64,000 nt of DNA from a bacterium. Its GTDB lineage: Bacteria > UBA10199 > 2-02-FULL-44-16 > DYJF01. Below are positions 4,504-64,000 of the stretch, piece by piece (the first letter of the stretch is position 1; the number at the start of each line of letters is the position of its first letter). The notes beneath the pieces were generated by a model. The model saw nothing but the letters and a program-made list of their open reading frames with translations. It was not told the DNA's origin and did not search any database. A program made the translations under genes and the position numbers. The stretch is taken from the NCBI GenBank assembly GCA_041739675.1, contig JBGSNL010000041.1, positions 54 through 64,053 on the forward strand. Direction: 5' to 3'.

Positions 4504-5142
4504 TTAGGATCCTTGGAAACAGCGGATGACTTCGTCGGCGGGGATGCGCCCTTCGCGCACTATCCTCATCGTCTCTTCACCGACATCGACGACCGTCGAG
4601 CCGCGGGACGGCTCGCACTCTCCCCCGTCAACGATGCAGGGTATCTTGTCGCCGAAATATTTCTGGATATGCTTGACTGATAGCGAGGGCGGAAACCCCG
4701 AAAGATTGGCGCTCGTCGTCGTGATGGGCTTGCCGAATTTTTTTACGAGGGCTGCGGCCACCGGATGGGACGAAATTCTCATGCCAACGCGGCCCGTGTT
4801 TGTAACGAGCCCTTTTGGAATCTTGTCGCTTGCAGGAAAGAGGATGGTTAGCGCGCCCGGCCAGAATTTGCGCATCAGAGAGAGTGCCTGTTCGGGAACC
4901 TCCTTCACATATTCGCGCAACATCGCGACGTCGGCGACAAGGATGGATATGGGCAGTCCGTAATCGCGGGCCTTCAGGTCGTAAATCTTTTTGACGGCTT
5001 TTCTGGAAAGGACGTCGGCGCCCAGGCCGTAGATCGTCTCGGTCGGATAGGCGATCACCTCGCCCTTTTCTAAAAACTCCACCGCTCGGACGATGTCGCC
5101 CTCGTATGGTTCTTTGGGATCTATGCGAAGCACGACAGACAT
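4504..5142 (-). CDS. tsaC: L-threonylcarbamoyladenylate synthase (YrdC/Sua5 family)
   Basis: 212 aa with the YrdC-domain motifs (..AYPTETIYGLGAD.., ..TTSANLSG..). Confidence 0.8.
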   Translation of the reverse strand: MSVVLRIDPKEPYEGDIVRAVEFLEKGEVIAYPTETIYGLGADVLSRKAVKKIYDLKARDYGLPISILVADVAMLREYVKEVPEQALSLMRKFWPGALTILFPASDKIPKGLVTNTGRVGMRISSHPVAAALVKKFGKPITTTSANLSGFPPSLSVKHIQKYFGDKIPCIVDGGECEPSRGSTVVDVGEETMRIVREGRIPADEVIRCFQGS

Positions 5143-5636
5143 TATTTAAGCCCCTTGTCTTTTTCCTCAACGGCCTTTGCCATCTTCTTGCGCCATTCCC
5201 TTAAAGCATCTGCTATTTTTTCATTGGAGAGAGCAAGTATCTCGGCGGCAAGGATGCCCGCGTTCTTGGCGCCGGCCTTTCCTATCGCGACAGTGGCGAC
5301 CGGAATTCCCGATGGCATCTGTACGGTGGAGAGAAGCGCATCGAGGCCTTGAAGCGATGATCCCTCGAGCGGCACGCCTATGACCGGAAGTATTGTCTGC
5401 GCGGCGACTGCACCGGCCAGATGCGCCGCGTATCCGGCACCCGCTATGATGACGCGGACCCCGTCCTTCTCGGCGTCCTTGATGAGAGAGACGACTTTTT
5501 GCGGCGTGCGGTGCGCCGACGCTATCGCCATACGCGCCTTCACGCCCACCTGCGCCAGCGCCTTCTTGGCCTCTTCCATAACCGACAGATCGGAATCCGA
5601 ACCCATGACTATTAGAACCTTCGGGGCTTCGGTCAT
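5142..5636 (-). CDS. purE: 5-(carboxyamino)imidazole ribonucleotide mutase
   Basis: 164 aa containing VLIVMGSDSDL and AGAGYAAHLAG..VIGVP motifs. Confidence 0.9.
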   Translation of the reverse strand: MTEAPKVLIVMGSDSDLSVMEEAKKALAQVGVKARMAIASAHRTPQKVVSLIKDAEKDGVRVIIAGAGYAAHLAGAVAAQTILPVIGVPLEGSSLQGLDALLSTVQMPSGIPVATVAIGKAGAKNAGILAAEILALSNEKIADALREWRKKMAKAVEEKDKGLK

Positions 5637-5653
5637 CTCTTTCTCCTTTCAAC

Positions 5654-6922
5654 TCATTTCAATGCGCGGCGCCCAATGTCTTTTCTGTAATGCGCGCCTT
5701 CCCACGATATCTTTTCCGCCGCATCGTATGCATTTTTTATCGCCGACGCAATGTCTGTCCCAAGTGCGGTTACGCCAATCACCCTTCCGCCGTTCGTCAG
5801 ATAATCGCCGTCTCTGAAAGTAGTGCCGGCATGGAACACTGTTACGTCCGGTTGCGATTCGGCATCTGCAAGGCCTCGGATGGGTTTTCCCTTTTCATAA
5901 TCTCCGGGATATCCCCCCGACGCCATGACAACGCAGACGGAAGGACGTTTGTCCCACTCGGGTTTCACCTTACCCAGTGTTCCGTCGATCGCGGCTTCGA
6001 TCAAATCTACAAGGTCCGTTTTCAGGCGCATCATTATAGGCTGCGTCTCCGGATCGCCGAAGCGGCAGTTGAACTCAAGCACATTGAAGCGGCCGTCTTT
6101 TATCATGAGGCCGGCATAAAGCACACCGGCGAAAGCTCTGCCCTCTGCCGCCATACCGCGCACGGCGGGTTTCATGACCTCGCTCATAACACGGTCGAAA
6201 ATATCCTGGGTCACAACGTGCGCGGGCGAATATGCCCCCATGCCGCCAGTGTTGGGGCCGCGGTCGTCGTCGAAGACCCGTTTGTGATCCTGCGACGTTG
6301 CAAGCGGAATCACGTTTTCCCCGTCGGATATGGCAATGAACGACGCCTCCTCACCCTCCAGAAATTCCTCGATCACGACTTTTTCTCCGGCGTCGCCGAA
6401 CGTGCGGTCCACCATGATGTCTTCGAGCGCTTCCGAGGCTTCAGATATGTTTTTGCAGATGATAACACCCTTGCCGGCCGCCAACCCGTCCACCTTGATG
6501 ACAATGGGCATTTGCTGTTTTAAAAGATATGTTCCCGCTTCTTTGACGTCGGTGAATGTCGCGGATTTGGCCGTGGGAATATTGTAGCGCTGGCAAAACT
6601 CCTTTGCAAAGACCTTGGAGCCTTCAAGTACGGCCGCTTCCTTTGTGGGGCCGAAAATCTTGAGCCCGCCCCGGCGAAAGATATCGACGATCCCCATCGT
6701 GAGGGGAACTTCAGGGCCCACGATCGTAAGATCGATCGCCTCTTTTTTTGCAAAATTCAGGAGGCCGTCGATATCTTCCGCCTTGACCTGAACGCATGTC
6801 GCATCTTTCGCAATGCCGGCATTTCCCGGCGCACAAAAGATCTGTTTCACGCGGGGGGATTTGGCGAGTTTCCAGACCAATGCGTGTTCACGTCCGCCGC
6901 TGCCGACGACGAGGATCTTCAT
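5654..6922 (-). CDS. purD: phosphoribosylamine--glycine ligase
   Basis: MKILVVGSGGREHALVWKL.. with an ATP-grasp domain. The start is taken at the second ATG, which is preceded by GGGAGG. Confidence 0.9.
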   Translation of the reverse strand: MKILVVGSGGREHALVWKLAKSPRVKQIFCAPGNAGIAKDATCVQVKAEDIDGLLNFAKKEAIDLTIVGPEVPLTMGIVDIFRRGGLKIFGPTKEAAVLEGSKVFAKEFCQRYNIPTAKSATFTDVKEAGTYLLKQQMPIVIKVDGLAAGKGVIICKNISEASEALEDIMVDRTFGDAGEKVVIEEFLEGEEASFIAISDGENVIPLATSQDHKRVFDDDRGPNTGGMGAYSPAHVVTQDIFDRVMSEVMKPAVRGMAAEGRAFAGVLYAGLMIKDGRFNVLEFNCRFGDPETQPIMMRLKTDLVDLIEAAIDGTLGKVKPEWDKRPSVCVVMASGGYPGDYEKGKPIRGLADAESQPDVTVFHAGTTFRDGDYLTNGGRVIGVTALGTDIASAIKNAYDAAEKISWEGAHYRKDIGRRALK

Positions 6923-7160
6923 TTTTTTCCTCCCGAACAGGCGCCTGAATAGACTCATTGTGATGGCGCTCTATACCTTTCGCCCAACTCTCAAATCAAG
7001 GGAAATGCGTCAAGAATCCGGCCATTTTCGGCCGATTATCACTTTGGATGCCGGTTTGATCGACCTACTTGTTTGATATTAAAAGACGTTTATTCGAGTT
7101 AAAGTGGCACATAAATTGCTCATCTAATGCTTGGAATTTAAAGCATATTTCGGAGGTTAT

Positions 7161-8255
7161 ATGAAAAGAACAATATTTGGAATCATTTGCATCATCTTCT
7201 TCGCAGGTTTGGTTCAGAGTGCGCATGGTCAACCTTTTCGTTACAAACCGCCGGCACCGCCTTCGCAACCGCAAATCAGGACTCCTTTCACCTTGAGTCC
7301 GGATTCGGTCACAATCACGGTCACGAGGAGGGGCTCGACCGATGCCGTCGAAGGAGTCGCGGTGGCAATCAGCGGAGTGCCAGCAAGAAGCGGCACGACC
7401 GACAGATTGGGGCACGCCTACTTCAATATGCCGGACGGCAGTTATACTGTGCGTCTTTCAAAGACGGGATATGATCCTTCGACCCGTTCGCTCACAAAAA
7501 GGGGAATAACGAGCGTTGCGTACGAAATGGTGGCGACTTCAACTGTGGGAGCGGTTCCCGCAACTTCATCGCTTCTGGTCATAGTCAAGCAAATCACGCC
7601 ATCAAGAACGGTTGAAATGTTACCCTGCGTCACGATCTCCCTTTTCACCCGTGATTGGCCGATTTCATTCGCAAGAAACGGCCAAACCGCCGGAACCGAC
7701 ACCGATGGAACAATATGCGGCCCGACACCGGAGGCGACAACGCTTGACCTTTCCACGGGGCAGGCAAGCTTTGACATACCCGACGGAGAATACGAAGTGC
7801 TGATTTACAAAGTCGGCTTCATTCCCATCAGACATTTTCTGACCAAACGCGGGGCAGGTTCACTGAACGGAACTCTCAGCGCAATGCAAACATTTGAAAC
7901 AATTTGTCCGCCCGGCGCTTATTACAGCACGGAGACTCGGCCGTTATGTGAAGCACCGGAAGCGACACGGGTCTTCAATATCACAGACACCGCGAGCGGC
8001 AGGGCAATAGAAGGAGCCACTATTATTGCCTTCAACGAATATGAAGCTTCTTATCACATGACTTATAAATACGGCGTTATTGCTGAAACTGACAGCAGCG
8101 GCAACGCAACCGTATCCATAAGGCTGCCACCGACAGATGAATACTACTACTATCTCATTTTCAAGGACGGATATCTACCTACGTACAATTTCATTCGTGC
8201 AACCCCAGGCATCGAAACATTCATCTACACGGAGGGATTGACACCGCTTCCGTAG
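7161..8255 (+). CDS. secreted protein with three carboxypeptidase-regulatory-like (Ig-like beta-sandwich) domains
   Basis: Signal peptide MKRTIFGIICIIFFAGLVQSAHG. Three modules each contain a ..DGSYTV/DGEYEV..GY.. motif. GC is lower than in the flanking DNA. Confidence 0.6.
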   Translation: MKRTIFGIICIIFFAGLVQSAHGQPFRYKPPAPPSQPQIRTPFTLSPDSVTITVTRRGSTDAVEGVAVAISGVPARSGTTDRLGHAYFNMPDGSYTVRLSKTGYDPSTRSLTKRGITSVAYEMVATSTVGAVPATSSLLVIVKQITPSRTVEMLPCVTISLFTRDWPISFARNGQTAGTDTDGTICGPTPEATTLDLSTGQASFDIPDGEYEVLIYKVGFIPIRHFLTKRGAGSLNGTLSAMQTFETICPPGAYYSTETRPLCEAPEATRVFNITDTASGRAIEGATIIAFNEYEASYHMTYKYGVIAETDSSGNATVSIRLPPTDEYYYYLIFKDGYLPTYNFIRATPGIETFIYTEGLTPLP

Positions 8256-8263
8256 GACGCACT

Positions 8264-11200
8264 TTAGTGCGCACTTTCCTGGATTGATTCAACCGTGCCG
8301 TCATGGGAAATGACGGCGACTACGGTTAGAGCGGCGCCGCCCGTATCCACAACTTCAACGATGAGTTTGACGGGCCAGACGCCCAGTGCCTGCGCCGCCT
8401 CCCCTTTCGCCTGAAACTCGATTCCTTTTTGGTCCACCTTTTCTATCCAGTGATCCAGAGAACCGCCGTGCCTGGCAACTATGTGCGCCGTGATATTCAT
8501 CGCGTCGCCGGCGGGATCCGCGAAACTGAATTTCGCCCGTCCGCGACCATCTTCAAACTTGATGTCGCTTATCGTCCCCTGTGGCGGCTCGTTCTCGTTC
8601 CAGTAGAAAAATCCCATCGCGCCTATTTTTGAAGCACCCTGATTGATATCAAAAGCCGCAAAGAGATCGGGACCGCCAAAACCTTTTCCGTGAAAAAAAG
8701 TCACCGCATGCGGGTTAACAAAAGACAGGGGAGCGCTTGGCAGAACATCGTCAAGGGTAGATTGAGGTTCCACAAGTTTTGCCATCTGCCCCGCTTTTCC
8801 CAATTGCGGATTTTCCGTTCCGTGTGTGAGCTCGAATATGGAGCCGTCGTTGGATACGAAAAGATCCGCATCGGTTCCGTATCCTTTCAGAATGGCCAGC
8901 GGTATTTTCATCTCCGCGGCGATGCTCCGCGTGCAGCCCCAGCCCCCGCCGTTTTCCCGGCAAAACGCAAGTGAGGTCTTTTCATCGATCGTTGCGACAA
9001 CTCCGAAACCTTTTTTGCTCAAGGCAAACACGTCCGCGGAATCGATGGGAGCGGCTGCCTCCCAAAGCGGAATGAACAGATACTCGCTCACGCCCTCGGT
9101 CGCCGTTATGATATCCACGCCGAAACCGTATCTCGCCTTTTTGCCGGCGACGTTTGCGAGCGTGCAGACGACACCGCCGGCAATAGTATTTTTTTGGTCG
9201 CGCGCAGGCGCTATCGACGCAACTCTCTCCACCTTGCACGACTCGTTTGTCTCTCCCGCCGTGAGAGACCACGGCCGGCTATCGCCGGAGAGAAAGATGT
9301 CCGCGTTCAAATTACAACGGCCTTTGCCGGCCATGGAAAGCTGTGCTGAAATTTTGGGAAAGCGGTAATATCCCGCAGGCGATGACGCGAACATGTCCTC
9401 GCCGGACGTTACGGTGAGATTTTCAAGTTTGTCTCTTCTTTCAATCTGACAATGGCCGAACGCGATCTGCCCCTTTTCGAAGATCTTGCGCACGGGTATT
9501 GCGGCTATCCCCGCTGAATCGGAGTTGGCGCCCGAGACCAGAAGCCACGAATATTTGTGATCGCCCGGCGTGACCGAAGAGCTGTAAACCTCGGCCCACG
9601 GCAAAATCACGGCACGCGTTTTTTTGAATTCAAACAATCTTTCCAGTTTGGAGGCACCCTCTGTTGAGACTACGGCGATTCCTCCCCTGTCGCAATAATT
9701 GGGAATCAGGTCCGCGTCGTCGTCGGCGGCGTCCGAAGGATTAGCGGCGGCACAGCTCACCACGTTTGAGCCGGCAGGACACTGGAACGTTCCGGGGATG
9801 ATACAGGTTCCAACAGTGACCGGGCACGCCTGGCCCAGTTTTGCGACGTCGTCGACGACACCGTTGCAGTCGTCGTCCGAACCCATGTTTTCACAGGATT
9901 CGATGGACGGTTGTTTTGGAACGCAGCTCTGACTTTTTCCGCCGGCGCAATTTGCTATCGTGACCTCGCAGGCGCCGATGCCGCAGACGGCCTCGCCCAG
10001 ATCCTCGTCGACCTCGCCGTCGCAATCGTCGTCAAGATTGTTGCAAGTCTCTTCTTTTGCAAAGACGGTCTCGACGCACGCAAGATCGCCCTCCGGCATG
10101 CAGCGGTACTCGCCCTTTGCGCAAATTCCCGAAAGGGAAGAGAGGCTGCACGGCGTGCCCGCTACCGCCGCCAGGACATCGCAACTGCCGCATTCATTTT
10201 TGAGGCCGCCGCCGATCGGTTCGTGCGTGCAGCCGATGATAGTATCACATTCGTCCGTGGTGCATGAATTTCCGTCGTTGCAGGCGAGAACCGCCCCTCC
10301 CTTGCAGGAGCCTTCGAGACACAGGTCCGCGGCCGTGCACGCATTGCCGTCATCACAACTCGTCCCTTCGGGAACGGCATCGTGCGAGCAGACCCCCGAT
10401 TTGCAAAAATCTTTCGTGCAGGAATTTCCGTCGTCGGTGCATCTTGTGTTTTCCGAAAGATCGAACCGCGGGCTGCAGATCAAGGCCCCCACTCTATCGG
10501 GATCGCATTGCCAGACACCGGCGCCGCATACATCCGCTCCGGAAACGCGGCATCTGTCGCCTACTTTGGCCGGCAGATCGCCGCAGCCGCCGCAGACGTT
10601 TTTGACGCCTTCGTCTATCCCGCCGTCGCAGTCATTGTCGAGATTGTCGCACTTCTCGGGTTTCGGATCCATCCTCGGCGCCGAACAGACGACCGCGCCC
10701 TTCTTCGCATCGCAGACCGTCGTCCCTTTGCGGAGACACTCCCCCGTCTGCCCGTTGTCGCAGAGCTCCGCCAAACCCGCCGCGTCGTCGACTATTCCGT
10801 TGCAGTCGTCGTCTACACGGTTGCCGCAGATCTCCTGTTTGCCCGCGCCCGGAACCGCGTTGCATTTCAGAGACAGCTTATCCTCCGAACAGACAAAGAC
10901 GCCGGCCCGCTCGCAAAATCCCACGCCATTCTTGCAGGGCTTTGCCAGATTTTCAAAACCTTCGTCCACCCTGCCGTCACAGTCATTGTCTATATTTTCG
11001 CCGCAGAGCTCGGCCACGGGCTTTAGAGGAACGCATTTGTTCGCCTTACCGGAAAGGCAGGCCGGAACCGTCTGTCTGCACGCGCCTATTCCGCATGTCG
11101 TGTCGCCAAGACCGTTATCGATGACACCGTCGCAATCGTTGTCGCTCCCGTCGCAGATCTCCGCTTTTGACGCGCCGGCGACCGCGTCGCAGATAACTCC

Positions 11201-48237: not shown

Positions 48238-49602
48238 TTGGCCGGACAATTTCATAGGACTATGATGAGAAAAAAGAAGATCCTCCTGATTTCAGTGGCT
48301 CAAGGTTATACGAACGGACACAAAGCAAAGACAACGCCCTGCGCCGCTCTTGGAATTATCGCCGCCTACACCCCGTCACATTACGACGTGCAGCTCATAA
48401 ACGAACAGAACAAAGAAAGCGTGTATCGTGAAGACGTCGACCTGGTCGGTTTTTCAGCCATGACCTGTCAGATAAAAAGGGCCATAGAAGTTGCAAAGTT
48501 CTACAGGGCACGGGGCGTTCCAACGGTAATAGGCGGCATTCACGCCACAGTGAGACCTGAGGATGTTTGCGATCATTTTGATGCCGCGGTGATAGGCGAA
48601 GGCGATCTGGTATGGAAAAATATTCTCGCCGATTTTGAAAAAGGGGAATTACAAAAGATCTACAAATCCGACGTGCTCGTCGATATGGAAAATGTGCCCG
48701 CCTTCCGTCACGACCTTCTTTACAGGAAGAAAACAACCCTTTCACATGCGATCGTCCAGACTTCAAGAGGTTGTCCGCACAATTGTGAATTCTGTTCCGT
48801 TACAAATCTCTTCGGCAACCATTACCGAACCAGGCCGGTTAAAAATGTCATAAAGGAAGTTGGCGGTCTTAAACAAAAATTCATCTTTTTCATTGATGAC
48901 AACATCATGGGCAATCACGACTATGCCTATCCCCTGTTTGAACAATTAATACCGCTGAAAAAAGCGTGGGTGGGCCAGGCATCGCTTAATCTGTCGGTGA
49001 AAGATCTGCAGCTCTTGAAGCTGGCCAAGAAATCCGGCTGCCAGGGCCTTTTCATCGGCATTGAATCGGTGACCAAAGCAAATCCGTACTCAAAATTGGG
49101 CTCAGTCAATCTCAAGGAGATATCCAAGAAATTAAAAATCCTCCGCGATCACGGTCTTGTTGTAAATACATCCACCATATTCGGGTTCGATCACGATGAT
49201 AAATACTGTTTTGAAAAGACAGTTGAATTCTTGCTGAAAAACCGCGTTGCCATAGGCAATTTTCCCAACCTCACCCCGTATCCGGGCTCGGCACTTTTTG
49301 CCCGTTTTGAAAAAGAAGGGCGAATGCTTCATTATGACTGGGAAAAATACAACAACCACCACCCGACCTTCAAATTGAAAAATCTCACTTCGGAAGAGCT
49401 TATAGCAGGCGGCTATTGGAGCTCTTATTATTTCTACAAAACCGGTAATATACTTAAACGTCTGCCCGCCAACCTGCGCAATATTTTCAAGTATTCTTAT
49501 ATGAATTACCAATACAATCGGATCTCCAGATTGCATAAGAACAAGGCCCACATCGTCAAAATGCCTCCCGCCATGCTAAAAAAATGGCTGAAACAGTTTT
49601 AG
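48238..49602 (+). CDS. B12-binding domain radical SAM protein
   Basis: N-terminal cobalamin-binding-like domain and a CPHNCEFC radical-SAM cluster. Lower GC. The start may be 48262 or 48265. Confidence 0.7.
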   Translation: MAGQFHRTMMRKKKILLISVAQGYTNGHKAKTTPCAALGIIAAYTPSHYDVQLINEQNKESVYREDVDLVGFSAMTCQIKRAIEVAKFYRARGVPTVIGGIHATVRPEDVCDHFDAAVIGEGDLVWKNILADFEKGELQKIYKSDVLVDMENVPAFRHDLLYRKKTTLSHAIVQTSRGCPHNCEFCSVTNLFGNHYRTRPVKNVIKEVGGLKQKFIFFIDDNIMGNHDYAYPLFEQLIPLKKAWVGQASLNLSVKDLQLLKLAKKSGCQGLFIGIESVTKANPYSKLGSVNLKEISKKLKILRDHGLVVNTSTIFGFDHDDKYCFEKTVEFLLKNRVAIGNFPNLTPYPGSALFARFEKEGRMLHYDWEKYNNHHPTFKLKNLTSEELIAGGYWSSYYFYKTGNILKRLPANLRNIFKYSYMNYQYNRISRLHKNKAHIVKMPPAMLKKWLKQF

Positions 49603-49784: not shown

Positions 49785-50447
49785 TCAAGGCAACAGTTCG
49801 ACCTTACCCGTATCGAGATCGTAATAGGCACCGATGACGGACAATTTTCCCTTCTTTACGAGATGCGAGAGGATGGGGTCCGAATCTTTGAGCGCTTTGA
49901 CCGCCCGCTCGACGTTGATATGGGAGGCCCTCTCGACAAGGTCGCATCCCCTGCTGCACTTCCTGGCTTCCGCGACCGCGGGAGCAATTGCATCCACGAT
50001 GCTCGCGATATGCCCCGGCGCCTCGCCTCCCTTTACAGCCTCGGTCACAGCGCCACAGCGCTTGTGGCCCATGACGACTACAAGCGGAACGTCAAAGTGC
50101 TCGGCGGCATATTCGACGGAACCGATATTCACGTCGTTCAAGACGTTTCCCGCCACGCGAACGACAAAGAGATCGCCCAGTCCCTGATCGAATATTATCT
50201 CGGGCGGGACGCGGGAGTCGGAACATGAAACTACGATCGCGCCCGGATGCTGCGACAAGGCGACGTCTTTCATGCGCTCCGCCCCCTGCCGCGGATGAGC
50301 CAGCTCTCCGCCCGTATATCGCGAATTGCCGGCCATGAGCGAGTCAAGGTTACGCTTCGCCTTCGCGTTCATATCCTTGGCGGAAGCCGTGAACGAAAAC
50401 ACAAGTAAACACGCGAGAGCGACTGTGAAAGTGCCGAAAGTTTTTTT
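49785..50447 (-). CDS. beta-class carbonic anhydrase, secreted
   Basis: Signal peptide MKKTFGTFTVALACLLVFSFTASA; zinc ligands CSDSR...HKRCG. Confidence 0.8.
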   Translation of the reverse strand, partial: KKTFGTFTVALACLLVFSFTASAKDMNAKAKRNLDSLMAGNSRYTGGELAHPRQGAERMKDVALSQHPGAIVVSCSDSRVPPEIIFDQGLGDLFVVRVAGNVLNDVNIGSVEYAAEHFDVPLVVVMGHKRCGAVTEAVKGGEAPGHIASIVDAIAPAVAEARKCSRGCDLVERASHINVERAVKALKDSDPILSHLVKKGKLSVIGAYYDLDTGKVELLP

Positions 50448-50576
50448 CATTTTTTCCCCCATTTCTTTCTTCGCTTCTAGAAAATCGGGCAACTTAAATC
50501 AAGCTATTGATAAAAAACGGTTATGATTATGATTAAAATCGCCGCCCGCCCTGCACCCATTTTCCGCAAAGCGATT

Positions 50577-50650
50577 TAGTTGTAATAATCATAAATAGTA
50601 GTTGTAATATAGTTGTAATAATCATATAATAACGTTGTAATTAGGTTGTT
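50577..50650. promoter_or_regulatory. iterated GTTGTAAT boxes (5 copies, two as longer AGTTGTAATAATCATA units) in the AT-rich promoter region of the HTH-ATPase-STAS gene
   Basis: tagttgtaataatcataaatagtagttgtaatatagttgtaataatcatataataacgttgtaattaggttgttATG. Confidence 0.5.
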
Positions 50651-51682
50651 ATGGAATCACTTAAAACATTGATATTAAATGAGTTTAAGAAACGGAAACG
50701 GCTTAAAACGGCCGATTTGGCACGGGTGTATAATGTGACCTATCAAGCCATACAAAAGCATCTATCCGCTTTGGCAAAAGAAGGTCGAATTCTGAAATTG
50801 GGAAGCTCTAAAAGAAACACCTATTATGTCCTCAACACGTCGCGGGCTCTTGGCCAGATTTTTAAGGGCGCAAGAAAGTTTACGAAGAGCATCAAGGCGG
50901 ATGGCGCAAACGAGAATGATTTGCTTCTGGAGTTGGCCATGCAAGCGGGGATTCTTAACGGACTGTCAAGAAACGCCAGAATAAATTTTGATTACGCGTT
51001 CACTGAAATGATCAACAATGCGATAGATCATTCCGGGACCCGCCTCATCGATGTTAACGTTGATATCAATGAAGGACTGGTTTCATTCTGTGTTTCAGAT
51101 ACGGGCGTGGGAATATTCCAAAACCTTTGTGAGAAGCGAAATCTAAAAACTGAAATGGAGGCAATTCAAGATCTTCTGAAGGGCAAACAGACAACAATGC
51201 CGGAAAGGCATACCGGTGAGGGTATATTCTTCACATCAAAAATAGCCGATCGTTTTGTCATCGAAAGTCATAACAAACGTTTGATAATAGATAACAGTAT
51301 AAACGACATATTCATAGAGGACATTCGCTTTAATCAGGGAACATCTGTTTTTTTCGAAATGAGATCGGGTTCGACTAAACAATTGGGAGAGCTTTTCAGC
51401 CAATTTACAAAGGAGAATTTCAAATTTGACAAGAGCCAGGTCAAAGTAAAAATGTTTGCGACCGGCGAGTTGTATATTTCACGTTCGCAGGCAAAGCGGC
51501 TTGTTCATGCATTGGACCAGTTTGCCGAGATAGTGCTGGATTTCAAAGATATTGATACAATTGGGCAAGCGTTCGCAGATGAGGTATTCAGGATCTTTCA
51601 GGCGGATCATCCGAATATAAAAATCACACCGATCAACTGTAACGAGAACGTCGAATTCATGATCAAAAGAGCGAAATCCTGA
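50651..51682 (+). CDS. fusion protein: N-terminal winged HTH + GHKL/HATPase_c-like ATPase + C-terminal STAS-like (DUF4325-like) domain
   Basis: wHTH (..LKTADLARVYNVTYQAIQKHLSALAKEGRI..), an N-box NAIDHS, a G1 box DTGVGI, and a roughly 100-aa STAS-like C-terminal tail. The gene is AT-rich. Confidence 0.55.
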   Translation: MESLKTLILNEFKKRKRLKTADLARVYNVTYQAIQKHLSALAKEGRILKLGSSKRNTYYVLNTSRALGQIFKGARKFTKSIKADGANENDLLLELAMQAGILNGLSRNARINFDYAFTEMINNAIDHSGTRLIDVNVDINEGLVSFCVSDTGVGIFQNLCEKRNLKTEMEAIQDLLKGKQTTMPERHTGEGIFFTSKIADRFVIESHNKRLIIDNSINDIFIEDIRFNQGTSVFFEMRSGSTKQLGELFSQFTKENFKFDKSQVKVKMFATGELYISRSQAKRLVHALDQFAEIVLDFKDIDTIGQAFADEVFRIFQADHPNIKITPINCNENVEFMIKRAKS

Positions 51683-51702
51683 TCACTATATGCCGCCGAA
51701 CA

Positions 51703-51803
51703 CCCCAAAACGCCTGCCATGTCCGAATGTTCGCCCGCCCTGGCCCATCGCTAAATGGCTAAAATTGGAGAATTGTTCAGCCATTGCTACGTTAGCGGTG
51801 GTT
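51703..51803. repeat. palindromic intergenic repeat, copy A (family with 53382-53403 and 54320-54400)
   Basis: ccccaaaacgcc...cgctaaatggctaaaattggagaattgttcagccattgctacgttagcggtggtt. An imperfect palindrome; it ends 13 nt before the catalase stop. Confidence 0.75.
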
Positions 51804-51815
51804 TCGCTTCCGCGA

Positions 51816-53270
51816 TCACTCGCCTTTCACGCCCTTGACGATGCGGCAGCCGGTCTCCTCATCGATGTTGCGCCAATATTCGAACGCGCGTTTCAGTACG
51901 GGCCCGGACACGCCGTTTTTCAAGTGCCCCACCACGTTTGAAACCAGCCGGCTGCGAGCCGCATCGTCCATGACCTTGCGCACGAGGGCGCCGGGTTGTC
52001 CGAAATCGTCGTCGTCTTTGCGCTTGGTGTAGGCAGCTCGGATGAAGTCGCCGCTGGCGTTCCAGATATCTGCCTGAGGATAGTGCTCCGAGTCGGGCTT
52101 GGGGCCGCCCTTTGAATTGGGCGCATAGACCGGATCGGAAGCGTGATCGATCCGCATCGTACCGCCCTTGCCATAGTTGTGCACCGGCACCTTCGGCCGG
52201 TTGACCGGGATCTGCTTGTAGTTGACCCCCAAGCGCGCACGGTGCGCGTCGGAGTAGGAAACAAGGCGGGCGAGCAGCATCTTGTCGGGGCTGGGACCGA
52301 TCCCCGGCACTAGGTTATTCGGCTCGAATGCAGCCTGCTCGATCTCGCTGTGAAAATCGCTTGGATTACGGTTCAGGGTGAGCCGGCCCACTTCATGCGG
52401 AGGGTAGTCGCCGTGGGGCCAGACCTTGGTCAGATCAAAGGGGTTGAAGCGGTAGGTCCTGGCATCTTCAAACGGCATTATTTGGACTTCCAATGTCCAG
52501 CTGGGATAATCCTCCTGTTTGATCGCCTCGCAAAGATCGCGGCGGTGGTAATCGGCATCAACTCCGGCGATCCGGTCGGCCTCCTCCTGCGTAAGAAATT
52601 CTATGCCTTGGTTAGTCTTGAAGTGGTATTTCACCCAAAAGCGTTCGCCTTTGGCATTGATCCACATGTAAGTATGGCTAGTGTAGCCGTTCATGTGCCG
52701 ATAGCTTTTGGGGACCCCGCGATCGCTCATCAGAATGGTGACTTGATGGGCCGTCTCGGGCGACAGGGTCCAGAAATCCCACTGCATGTCGTTGTCGCGA
52801 AGGCCGTTGTCCGCCCTGCGCTTCTGGGAGTGGATGAAGTGCTGAAACTTCATCGGATCGCGCACGAAAAAAACGGGCGTGTTATTTCCCACCATATCGT
52901 AGTTGCCTTCGGTGGTGTAGAACTTGAGTGCAAATCCGCGCACGTCACGCCATGTGTCGGGACTGCCGCCTTCACCGGCCACCGTGGAGAACCGGGCCAG
53001 CACATCGGTCTTCGTGCCCGGCTGGAACAGAGCCGCCTTGGTGTAGGCGCTGATGTTCTTGGTTACCTCGAAGTGGCCAAAGGCCCCGGAACCCTTTGCG
53101 TGGGGCTGGCGGTCGGGAATCATCTCTCTGTTGAAGTTGGCCATCTGCTCCAAGAGATAATGGTCGTGCAGCAGGATGGGGCCGTCGGGCCCGACGGTCA
53201 GCGAAAACTCATCGCTGGATACCGGGATCCCGGCATCGGTTGTCGTGAATTTGCGGTCGTCGTTTTTCAT
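51816..53270 (-). CDS. katA: monofunctional heme catalase
   Basis: 484 aa with catalase core motifs (..RERIPERVVHAKG-like [22 protein letters not shown].., ..RLFSYSDAHR-like [10 protein letters not shown]). Confidence 0.9.
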
Positions 53271-53381: not shown

Positions 53382-53403
53382 TTCAGCCATTGCTCCGTTA
53401 CCC
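53382..53403. repeat. partial copy B of the palindromic repeat (20/20 identity with copy C half-site)
   Basis: ttcagccattgctccgttac; upstream of both catalase and the DJ-1 gene. Confidence 0.5.
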
Positions 53404-62388: not shown

Positions 62389-63651
62389 TTATATGATCTT
62401 CAGCACCAGGGCCGTCACGTCGTCGTGCGGCACTTTGGGCTCCACGAAAGACGCGGTCGCGTCGACTATCGCGTCCACAATTTCGCGCGGCCCCTTTTCG
62501 ACCGACGACTTCAGGACTTCGTAGAGCCTCTGCTTGCCGAATCTCTCCCCCTTCGTGTTGACCGCTTCAGTAACGCCGTCCGTGTACAAGACGACAACGT
62601 CTCCCTTGGCAACGACGACCTGCTTGTCGTGATAGATGCTCATCGGCTCGATCCCCAAAAGAGGATCGGAGGTGATGAGCTCTTCAAATTGTTTTGTCGC
62701 CTTGCGCCAGACGATCGGCGGCGGATGGCCCGCGTTGGTGAACTGTATGAGCTGGCGCGATTTGACATATTTGACGAACGCCATCGAGATGAACTGCTCC
62801 GCCTGAAAGAGATCTTCGTAGAGGATCTGGTTCAAACGCTGGACCAAAATTGACGGCGTGTATTCCGCGTCCATCTGGGATTTCATCGCCGAACGGAACG
62901 CCGCCATGATGAGCGCCGCGCCGATTGAGTGGCCGGACACGTCCGCGACCACGAACGACGGGCGCTTCGTGCGCGATAAGAAAAAATCGTAGTAGTCGCC
63001 GCCGACGCGTTCCGCGGTTATCACGCGGCCCGCCGCCTCGACGCCGTCCATCCGCGGCGGCTCAACCGGCAAGAGCCGGTACTGGATCTGCCGCGCGATC
63101 TCTAACTGCTGACGCAACTGCTCGGACCTTGCAACCTCGGCGGAAAGCTGGAGCATGCGAAGATAAGAGGCGACCTGATTCGACAAAGTCGTTAGAAGTT
63201 TCAGATCGTGGTCGGTGAACGGTGTTCCGTCCGCGCGGTCGGTGACGTTGATGACGCCGATGGATTCTTTGCCGACCTTCATTGGAAAACAGGTGACGGG
63301 CGCCGACATGAGAGATGCGGTCTTGTAACGGTCCGATCCCGAGCCAAGGCCCGCCACTTTGATATCTTCGACGAGCAAAGGTTCATTGCTGCGAAAAACT
63401 TTTCCGCTGATGCCTTCGCCAACGCGCACAACCGCCTGACTCTGGATCTTGGGGTCCAGCCCGCGCGCTGCGGCGATCCTTAAACCCTCTATCGCGGGGT
63501 CGTAGATCATGATCGACGCCTTCTCCACTCCGAAGAGTTCCACGACCTTATCAAGAATCAGGTCATAGACCTCGGAGAGTTCTCTTGCCTGCGCGATGGC
63601 GTCGCTCAAGGAGTGGACCGCCTCGATTGCTTTCCTGTCAGCCTGACTCAT
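62389..63651 (-). CDS. GAF-domain PP2C-type (SpoIIE/RsbU-like) serine phosphatase
   Basis: N-terminal GAF, then a PPM domain (..GGDYYDF.., ..YTDGVTEA..). Confidence 0.8.
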   Translation of the reverse strand: MSQADRKAIEAVHSLSDAIAQARELSEVYDLILDKVVELFGVEKASIMIYDPAIEGLRIAAARGLDPKIQSQAVVRVGEGISGKVFRSNEPLLVEDIKVAGLGSGSDRYKTASLMSAPVTCFPMKVGKESIGVINVTDRADGTPFTDHDLKLLTTLSNQVASYLRMLQLSAEVARSEQLRQQLEIARQIQYRLLPVEPPRMDGVEAAGRVITAERVGGDYYDFFLSRTKRPSFVVADVSGHSIGAALIMAAFRSAMKSQMDAEYTPSILVQRLNQILYEDLFQAEQFISMAFVKYVKSRQLIQFTNAGHPPPIVWRKATKQFEELITSDPLLGIEPMSIYHDKQVVVAKGDVVVLYTDGVTEAVNTKGERFGKQRLYEVLKSSVEKGPREIVDAIVDATASFVEPKVPHDDVTALVLKII

Positions 63652-63656
63652 AAATT

Positions 63657-64000
63657 TTAGACGTTCAATGTGAGGACGAGTTCGTGGCCCTCGGGTGTCT
63701 GCCTGCTCTCCACGCTGTCCATCAGGCGGTCCATCATATAAAGCCCCCTCCCTTTCGTTGCAACAAGTTTGGGCGCGTGGATGGCCGGGTGATCCAGCCC
63801 CGGACCGCGGTCTCCGACAGTCATCACGATATGGCCCTTTTCGGCTTTGATAGCCACGTCTACGGGCATGTTCGCGCGCTGACGGTGTGCATGGAAGATT
63901 GCATTATCGACGGCTTCGATCAAGGCCAAAGTGCAGGCCCTGAGGGCCCTTTTCGGAAGGTGGCGCCTGCCCGCAACCTTAAATATGGCGGCCACAAGCT
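63657..64000 (-). CDS. RsbW-like anti-sigma factor / serine kinase (HATPase), 5' end beyond window
   Basis: ..EAVDNAIFHA.. N-box and DRGPGL G1-box. The ORF runs off the window end. Confidence 0.65.
   Translation of the reverse strand, partial: LVAAIFKVAGRRHLPKRALRACTLALIEAVDNAIFHAHRQRANMPVDVAIKAEKGHIVMTVGDRGPGLDHPAIHAPKLVATKGRGLYMMDRLMDSVESRQTPEGHELVLTLNV

Follow-up and report, generated by a model that had tools for sequence, protein, structure and literature searches.

Kinases of the GHKL class that act on STAS-domain partners have so far been known as sigma-factor partner switches and, since 2026, as DNA-damage-responsive control of immune operons and toxins in the CapKS and VapKSC systems. 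CapK, with the domain order HTH-STAS-GHKL, is switched on by single-stranded DNA (ssDNA) and phosphorylates Ser54 of CapS, a STAS protein with a winged helix-turn-helix (wHTH) that represses its own promoter cooperatively; phosphorylation splits the CapS dimer and de-represses the capS promoter together with the downstream immune operon (Chambers et al., EMBO J 2026, PMC13373217). In the VapKSC system, VapK phosphorylates Ser48 of the antitoxin VapS and frees the toxin VapC (PMC13373217). VapS was found to be a DUF4325 protein (Pfam E 2.7e-17), which explains the coupling of DUF4325 genes with the PIN.4 group of VapC (Matelska et al. 2017, PMC5499597); neither CapS nor CapK has a STAS domain that matches DUF4325. 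A fused form of such a pair is not described in the CapKS paper (PMC13373217). The subject of the present analysis is a fusion of this kind, a 343-aa protein encoded at 50651-51682 of a 64,000-nt stretch (the window) of the bacterial contig JBGSNL010000041.1, in which a wHTH, a GHKL domain of the SpoIIAB/RsbW class and a DUF4325 STAS-like domain share one chain, and whose gene is preceded by an array of short repeated boxes. Unmarked coordinates are window positions on the + strand, and labels from L001 to L127 denote the homologue contigs compared.

With a probability of roughly 0.6, the locus is a one-gene, mobile, self-regulating unit in which an ATP-dependent kinase-STAS switch gates a repressor. 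The explanations weighed against this are, in falling order of likelihood, a kinase toxin-antitoxin (TA) module, a CapK-like sensor, repeats that are not operators, and a sigma-factor partner switch. In the searchable literature DUF4325 occurs in three papers, each time in passing, and no experimental study of the fused family was found there.

The box array and the recognition helix

Four exact copies of GTTGTAAT lie upstream of the gene, at 50579-50586, 50601-50608, 50612-50619 and 50634-50641 (boxes 1 to 4), and a fifth box, the one-mismatch variant GTTGTTAT, lies over the start codon (50645-50652; ATG at 50651-50653). A first-pass annotation, made from the window's letters, had described five repeats; four are exact and the fifth is this variant. 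The window holds six copies of GTTGTAAT against 0.88 expected, a number reached in 0 of 100 shuffles, and no further phased cluster of them across its 64 kb. Relative to the ATG the boxes begin at -72, -50, -39, -17 and -6, so that their start-to-start spacing is 22, 11, 22 and 11 nt, and every copy therefore faces the same side of the DNA helix. The two 16-nt AGTTGTAATAATCATA units that had also been noticed (50578-50593 and 50611-50626) are real, and each belongs to one copy of a 33-nt tandem duplication (50574-50606 and 50607-50639, 79% identical). Embedded in the array is a sigma-70-like promoter (50602-50630) composed of a -35-like TTGTAA within box 2 (50602-50607) and, 17 nt further on, a -10-like TATAAT (50625-50630), together 10 matches of 12; box 3 falls in its spacer and box 4 over the expected transcription start. 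In orthologues the -10-like hexamer is TATAAT or TATAGT. Inspection by eye suggests that a second promoter could exist with an 11-nt offset, using TTGTAA in box 3 (50613-50618) as a possible -35 and, after 17 nt, TGTAAT in box 4 (from 50636) as a possible alternative -10. Under either candidate promoter the leader is very short.

The array travels with the gene. Among orthologues on usable contigs, P0002 (87% identical, L001), P0003 (85%, L002/L003) and P0008 (74%, L004) are the closest, and in a MAFFT alignment with these the DNA is unrelated up to exactly box 1, after which the five boxes, the -10 and the coding region are kept until similarity breaks off some 5 nt beyond the stop codon. In L001, L002 and L004 box 1 is retained and box 5 is identical. 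The conserved cassette, operator/promoter array plus gene, thus spans 50578-51687. Its surroundings differ from genome to genome: PLD-like and ORF6N genes, NYN/YacP and ArsP, or pyruvate-ferredoxin oxidoreductase and HGD-D in the orthologues, and carbonic anhydrase and catalase, both on the opposite strand, in the window. The first-pass annotation had staked its proposal in part on conservation of the boxes upstream of orthologues, and they are kept in these unrelated contexts. Beyond the strictly conserved cassette, 40-60 nt 5' of box 1, the window carries GGTTATGATTATGATTAAAAT (50519-50540), which over 10 nt (100%) is exactly the reverse complement of ATAATCATAA within the 16-nt units; a similar GATTAAGATTAAG stands at the corresponding point in L001, and none in L002 or L004.

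More distant members keep the arrangement while the box sequence changes. Homologues of 62%, 61% and 54% identity retain the layout with GTT(G/T)AC(G/A)TA, GTTGACATA and GTTGATA boxes, respectively, and among such intermediate homologues the 5' GTTG is constant and the 3' half varies by clade. Distant homologues (38-45% identical) almost always have three to six iterated boxes upstream, for example GTTTACAAT, CTTGACAAT and GTTGACAACTT. Counted over both strands, the motif TT[GT]ACAA averages 2.69 copies in a 136-nt upstream region; elsewhere in the loci the figure is 0.065, and in shuffled upstream regions it is 0.083. Across the family, spacings concentrate at 11 nt (38 cases), 21-22 nt (35 cases) and 32-33 nt, and the boxes stand at about -50, -39, -17 and -6 from the ATG, sometimes with further ones at -72/-83. 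This phased-array criterion (8-9-nt boxes at those four positions) was defined within the present analysis, and the window's boxes fit the family template.

Box sequence also follows the predicted recognition helix of the adjacent protein (residues ~30-43, TYQAIQKHLSAL). Helices of an S-R-Q class accompany ACAAT-type direct repeats (34 loci versus 5), and those of an S-R-[A/V/T]-Y class accompany ACAAC-type boxes with an inverted copy after the -10 (23 loci versus 3), an association with a Fisher p of 7.8e-10 computed without correction for phylogeny; presence of the inverted copy also depends on helix class (p 9e-7, likewise uncorrected). In the window's own clade T-Y-Q replaces S-R-Q and the boxes read GTTGTAAT. 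Loci with unusual helices (L079, L044, L082 and L065) carry unusual iterated boxes in the same phasing, among them ACTATTAA (x4), TAACACTA (x4) and TTACGATTC (x3). Taken together, the co-variation and the joint travel of boxes and gene argue strongly, on comparative grounds, for recognition of the boxes by the wHTH of the protein itself. Protein bound there would cover the -35 and the spacer as well as the start site and the ATG, and would be expected to repress the gene. The autoregulation proposed at first pass is therefore strongly supported as a prediction, in the form of autorepression, and phased arrays occur across the family.

It might be argued instead that the repeats are duplicated promoter hexamers, plasmid-type iterons or recombination sites at the cassette boundary. 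Hexamers resembling -35 and -10 elements do lie inside the boxes, the 11/22-nt spacing is iteron-like, and DNA homology among orthologues begins exactly at box 1. The boxes at -72 and -6 (over the ATG), however, cannot be promoter elements of this gene, and box sequence co-varies with the recognition helix of the adjacent protein. The loci sit on large chromosomal contigs of up to 2.5 Mb, and neighbour scans found no Rep, integrase or transposase gene linked to the homologue loci. A non-operator origin of the repeats is thus very improbable, and its iteron or plasmid-origin variant was rejected on account of the chromosomal contexts and the lack of a Rep gene.

A gene outside the family displays a comparable arrangement. 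L063 encodes (1143-2174, - strand) a Fic protein with a C-terminal wHTH (Pfam Fic E 3.5e-16, HTH_24 E 7.9e-7) that is 32% identical over 53 aa to the wHTH of the window protein (E 8e-6), and upstream of this Fic gene (2175-2215) CTTTACAA is repeated three times at 11-nt spacing. The shared wHTH and box type look like a portable wHTH-operator autoregulatory module used by two enzyme families.

Domains of the chain and the acceptor position

The reading of the protein as a single-chain wHTH, GHKL and STAS-like fusion was borne out by profile and structure searches, with DUF4325 and HATPase_c_2 both passing Pfam gathering thresholds within one chain. The central GHKL ATP-binding domain (50903-51409, residues ~85-253) matches HATPase_c_2 (PF13581; residues 103-209, E 2.1e-8, 34.7 bits against a cutoff of 27.4) and HATPase_c (E 1.7e-6, 28.9 bits against 26.4), and its closest PDB structures in Foldseek are SpoIIAB (1tid_A, E 1.2e-5, TM 0.77 on the target) and RsbW (6m36, TM 0.82-0.84). 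The N box (E119-H127, 51005-51031) and the G1 box (D150-G154, 51098-51112), read at first pass as NAIDHS and DTGVGI, are present as NNAIDHS and DTGVGI and are invariant in the family; they are followed by the ATP lid and G2 (K177-S196, 51179-51238). Across 250 full-length family members, the set used for all invariance counts, the ATP-binding residues E119, N122, N123, H127, D150, G152 and G154 and the lid motifs K177-G178-K179-x-T181-T182 and H187-x-G189-x-G191 are unchanged. The predicted ATP site is intact throughout the wHTH-GHKL-DUF4325 family.

The other two domains flank this one. The wHTH (50660-50833, residues ~4-61) is indicated by a sub-threshold HTH_24 match (residues 6-47, E 1.4e-3), by the H-H-H-E-E secondary structure of an AlphaFold2 (AF2) model, and by a profile built from 40 family members that matches MarR/AdcR/AspA wHTH structures (E ~3e-4) and also SpoIIAB. 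The STAS-like domain (51434-51679, residues ~262-343) is marked by DUF4325 (PF14213; residues 280-334, E 2.6e-14, 53.1 bits against a cutoff of 23) and by conservation. Modelled alone, residues 249-343 form a threefold beta-alpha unit (pLDDT 76) whose top Foldseek matches are all STAS domains, namely prestin STAS, RsbS, stressosome proteins and SLC26 transporters, at E ~1e-2 and TM ~0.6. The full-length AF2 model (pLDDT 77.9, pTM 0.57) has a disordered lid (residues 180-189) and GHKL-STAS linker, both with pLDDT <50. Searches of PADLOC, NCBIfam and PDB sequences with the protein gave no informative full-length match, and an Rfam scan of 50300-51900 gave none at all.

The kinship of the GHKL domain and of the tail was further explored with hhalign, using CapK, CapS, VapK and VapS sequences from the supplements of PMC13373217. 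The family GHKL domain aligns with a split GHKL protein of L019 at 95% probability, with SpoIIAB at 86%, with VapK at 71% (E 3.6e-5) and with CapK at 38%; the tail aligns with a stand-alone DUF4325 protein of L019 at 88% and weakly with VapS (E 1.8e-3), and has no match to CapS. L019 itself provides a natural fused/split comparison pair. Its fused member (4989-5999) is followed by a 333-aa HATPase_c_2 protein (6214-7215), the stop codon of which overlaps the start of the 96-aa stand-alone DUF4325 gene (7212-7502, E 1.9e-15), with a putative protein kinase gene next. The presence of this split pair beside a fused copy supports the view that GHKL and DUF4325 form a working pair.

In one respect the tail departs from STAS substrates. 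The position occupied by the phospho-serine in VapS, CapS and SpoIIAA is here the invariant G305-Q306 (51563-51568): residues 305-307 are Gly in 248/250 members, Gln in 249/250 and Gly or Ala in 244/250, respectively. Alignment by hhalign sets phospho-Ser48 of VapS opposite Gln306, and a helix begins at residue 306 in both AF2 models. With Gly-Gln-(Gly/Ala) at the acceptor position, RsbW-to-RsbV-type phosphorylation would be impossible at that site, and the canonical STAS phospho-acceptor is absent family-wide. A second invariant element, the Ser277-Arg278-Ser279 loop (51479-51487), is located at the first STAS helix's N-cap; neither VapS nor the stand-alone DUF4325 of L019 conserves it. A hand alignment of 'DIDTIGQ' to 'MDSSG' had equated Thr303 with Ser58 of SpoIIAA; this was rejected, since Thr or Ser stands there in 61% of the 250 members, the helix starts at 306, and hhalign (VapS, stand-alone DUF4325) puts the acceptor at 305-307.

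The missing serine bears directly on the idea that the locus is a conventional RsbW/RsbV partner switch sequestering a sigma factor in concert with the Rsb-like genes at 62.4-64.0 kb. The first-pass annotation had pictured the chain as a partner-switching module collapsed into one protein, and the part of this picture that stands is the kinase-class GHKL domain, structurally closest to SpoIIAB/RsbW, together with a STAS-like domain; the part that falls is the acceptor and any linked sigma factor. No sigma-factor gene adjoins this gene, and none was found at 87 related loci or among 145 immediate neighbours of homologues. The separate pair was correctly recognised, comprising a GAF-SpoIIE (PP2C) phosphatase (62389-63651, - strand, E 3.5e-48) and an RsbW-like HATPase_c_2 open reading frame (ORF) that reaches the window edge (63657-63995, - strand, E 5.3e-20), and is a conventional partner-switching pair without link to this gene. 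It lies about 11 kb from a gene that appears to be a horizontally acquired cassette and has unlike contexts elsewhere, and the DNA-binding domain with its own operator array points to direct transcriptional control. Of the explanations considered, sequestration of a sigma factor is the least probable and very remote.

Family, cassette and genomic contexts

The wHTH-GHKL-DUF4325 architecture is that of a very large family and is not unique to this genome. A word-indexed search returned 6462 matches to the protein, with full-coverage homologues (100% of the query) at 43-87% identity, and an exhaustive search returned 2305 clusters at 50% identity, 656 of them with E<1e-30; nearly all of the latter are 335-355 aa long and collinear with the query, and the window protein has every invariant column. 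The only names given to them at source are 'DUF4325 domain-containing protein' and 'anti-sigma regulatory factor (Ser/Thr protein kinase)'. Species-representative genomes contain at least 561 confirmed loci. The best 80 loci are all from metagenome-assembled genomes, 44 of them from the candidate phyla radiation (CPR/Patescibacteria) and the remainder from Omnitrophota, Planctomycetota, delta- and gamma-proteobacteria, Actinomycetota and others. CPR/Patescibacteria have very few regulators, and the family is especially abundant there.

The gene is AT-rich, as had been remarked from the outset: 41.5% GC, and 35-38% in the box region, compared with 53.7% in the window and ~60% in the immediate flanks. 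Orthologues share the bias (40-43% against 50-54% in their hosts). Homology confined to the interval from box 1 to the stop codon in otherwise unrelated contexts indicates a compact cassette of ~1.1 kb placed in varied genomes, and comparative evidence supports the view that it is horizontally mobile. ORF calling with all-against-all BLAST at 87 loci disclosed no conserved operon partner, the best being a Fic-family gene in 7/87, and in a Pfam/PADLOC scan of the 145 immediate neighbours the sole recurrent match was Fic/SoFic (4 proteins). Immediate neighbours are mostly housekeeping genes (enolase, LeuRS, RuvB, PolA, SHMT). The neighbourhoods of homologues are heterogeneous.

These observations invite the interpretation that the gene is a fused one-gene TA or abortive-infection module, in which the GHKL domain is a Ser/Thr kinase effector acting on a host or phage protein, the STAS-like domain a cis 'antitoxin' pseudo-substrate, and the wHTH a source of the autorepression typical of type II TA systems. 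A solitary, AT-rich, mobile gene set among unrelated housekeeping genes would suit such a module, as would multi-operator autorepression of the hipBA kind, and DUF4325 is the antitoxin domain in VapKSC, consistent with the coupling of PIN.4 VapC genes to DUF4325 genes (PMC5499597). A Fic/SoFic-type enzyme is the most frequent neighbour, and the one in L063 shares both wHTH type and box type. Relatives are also encoded on 39 IMG/VR predicted viral or prophage contigs (L089-L127), roughly half of them within ~5 kb of a contig end in an unscripted reading by eye; such placement could reflect either cargo at prophage borders or host flanks taken into the prediction. Against this, PADLOC defence models match nothing in the protein beyond its HTH part, the adjoining genes are mostly housekeeping rather than parts of defence islands, and tblastn against curated phage and plasmid collections gave no match. 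No toxin gene lies near the gene, and no PIN/VapC ORF adjoins it in the window or occurs among the homologues' immediate neighbours. The gene is, moreover, extremely widespread in tiny CPR genomes, whereas an element that is solely selfish should have a patchier distribution. A TA function is accordingly unlikely, although it stands foremost among the alternatives.

Next in rank, and also unlikely, is a CapK-like sensor kinase and repressor, whose STAS-like tail would sense a ligand such as ssDNA and whose distal regulon would carry the same boxes. CapK has the same domain types (HTH, STAS, GHKL) and senses ssDNA in the groove between STAS and GHKL, and the invariant S277-R278-S279 together with K282/R283 could bind phosphate or nucleic acid. 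One locus fits the notion of a regulon: L015 carries, directly behind the family gene's stop codon, another complete operator/promoter unit (GTTTACAACTT GTTGACAACT ... AAGTTGTCAAC, 6014-6057), which precedes an EcsC-family gene (6218-6997, Pfam E 1e-27) that may be an extra regulated target. Such units are rare, however: a further box cluster lies in the 5 kb to either side at only 3 of ~80 loci, and the window has no other phased GTTGTAAT cluster. The domain order differs from that of CapK, similarity to which is confined to the N-box/G1 region, and the STAS-like domain belongs to the VapS (substrate) type, not to the type internal to CapK.

Several further features were recorded at or near family members. 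In L040, TTTACA-type boxes, direct and inverted (8322-8371), stand ahead of an 88-aa HTH ORF (8380-8646) and a 138-aa ORF (8646-9062) that looks Doc-like by eye; the two are a possible TA pair whose operator would be related. Just upstream of the cassette in the window, a B12-binding radical SAM gene (48238-49602) forms a second AT-richer stretch, with a GC content of 0.41-0.49, below its surroundings. On the 3' side, what had been taken for one copy of a catalase-flanking palindrome immediately after the gene turned out to be one of two copies of a 19-nt direct repeat, TTCAGCCATTGCT(A/C)CGTTA, at 51776-51794 and 53382-53400, the first beginning 94 nt past the stop codon. The two copies bracket the catalase gene (51816-53270, - strand), and the first contains an AATGGCT...AGCCATT inverted repeat. 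This repeat was rejected as part of the element, since it lies outside the conserved cassette.

Mechanism and comparison with known systems

For the self-regulating unit that we favour, a three-step working model may be proposed. In the first step, strongly supported by the comparative evidence, the wHTH would bind the phased 8-bp boxes at -72, -50, -39, -17 and -6, and several copies of the protein, side by side and presumably cooperatively, would shut the gene's own promoter. In the second, the GHKL domain would bind ATP and the tethered STAS-like domain might dock on it, by analogy with SpoIIAA on SpoIIAB and VapS on VapK. With Gly-Gln-(Gly/Ala) standing in for the acceptor serine, the STAS-like domain is probably not a substrate but a non-phosphorylatable pseudo-substrate or a sensor of the gamma-phosphate. 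In the third, the nucleotide state, or a signal at the GHKL/STAS interface, may alter the oligomeric state or the wHTH geometry, upon which the repressor would leave the DNA in a manner comparable to the release of CapS after phosphorylation by CapK. Output beyond self-regulation could be a distal regulon, or another target of the kinase/ATPase.

A number of points weigh against this model, the chief of which is its missing output: a regulator of itself alone has no obvious selective value, and this is the main gap. The geometry between the domains is unsettled in the AF2 prediction, given its pTM and the low pLDDT of lid and linker, and the STAS fold of the tail is backed at a moderate level by Foldseek matches with E ~1e-2. 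The boxes hold sigma-70-like hexamers (TTGACA, TACAAT, TGTAAT), so that their conservation could in part reflect promoter function, and the statistics on helix and box co-variation take no account of phylogeny. Thr or Ser at position 303, in the 61% of members that have it, together with the invariant Ser277 and Ser279, leaves room for a non-canonical phosphosite.

A bolder version would make the family a new class of single-chain ATP-driven switch, with a VapS-type STAS domain fused to its kinase as a permanent pseudo-substrate or gamma-phosphate sensor (through Gly-Gln and the Ser-Arg-Ser loop), a GHKL nucleotide state that gates the wHTH, a wHTH and phased TTxACAA-type operator that are portable and shared with Fic, and a cassette that spreads horizontally as a stress or conflict sensor. 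So extended a proposal is put forward tentatively and, taken as a whole, would probably not hold in every part. Whatever its fate, a sequence-predictable operator, helix co-variation and family-wide loss of the canonical acceptor make this a tractable system for the study of STAS signalling without phosphorylation and of the signal sensed, in a family prominent among uncultured, genome-reduced CPR bacteria, and one that offers ready-made orthogonal repressor-operator pairs.

Among described systems, the SoFic-like Fic-wHTH enzymes have a homologous wHTH and, in L063, the iterated CTTTACAA boxes; their enzymatic part, however, is a Fic AMP-transferase, the wHTH is C-terminal, and boxes are missing from some neighbouring Fic genes. 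The SpoIIAB-SpoIIAA and RsbW-RsbV modules share with this protein the GHKL fold with its N box (E..N..), G1 (DxGxG) and ATP lid/G2, including a TTxPE...SGxGxxF lid motif that aligns with 'TTKPELERSGMGF' of SpoIIAB, and they share a STAS-fold partner. Here, in contrast, kinase and STAS are fused, no acceptor serine stands at the N-terminus of helix alpha-2, there is no sigma-factor linkage, and a wHTH and an operator array have been added. The likeness to VapKSC is at the level of domains only, a DUF4325-type STAS being combined with a GHKL kinase to which that of VapK is detectably related. The locus has no PIN/VapC gene, and the conserved Ser/Thr48 of VapS, the target of VapK, aligns with the invariant Gln306; conversely, VapKS has neither a DNA-binding domain nor an operator array, and VapK possesses a STAS sensor domain at its N-terminus, which the present protein lacks.

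CapK/CapS and VapK/VapS are the nearest of the studied systems. In CapK/CapS as in this locus, an HTH and a STAS domain serve transcription control together with a GHKL kinase of the anti-sigma-like kind, the N box of the GHKL domain belongs to the 'DHSxS' type, SpoIIAB-SpoIIAA is the model for how kinase and STAS interact, and a wHTH repressor acts at repeated sites in its own promoter, cooperatively in CapS and by prediction here. CapK and CapS are nevertheless the products of two adjacent genes, whereas wHTH, GHKL and STAS here form one chain; Ser54 of CapS is absolutely conserved, whereas Gly-Gln-(Gly/Ala) takes its place here; capKS lies upstream of immune operons, whereas this gene is solitary among housekeeping genes; and the CapS operators are TTAA palindromes rather than phased direct repeats of 8-9 nt. 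The locus thus represents a third layout of the GHKL/STAS pair, in which repressor, kinase-like and STAS domains are carried on one chain together with a conserved, putative operator array of their own.

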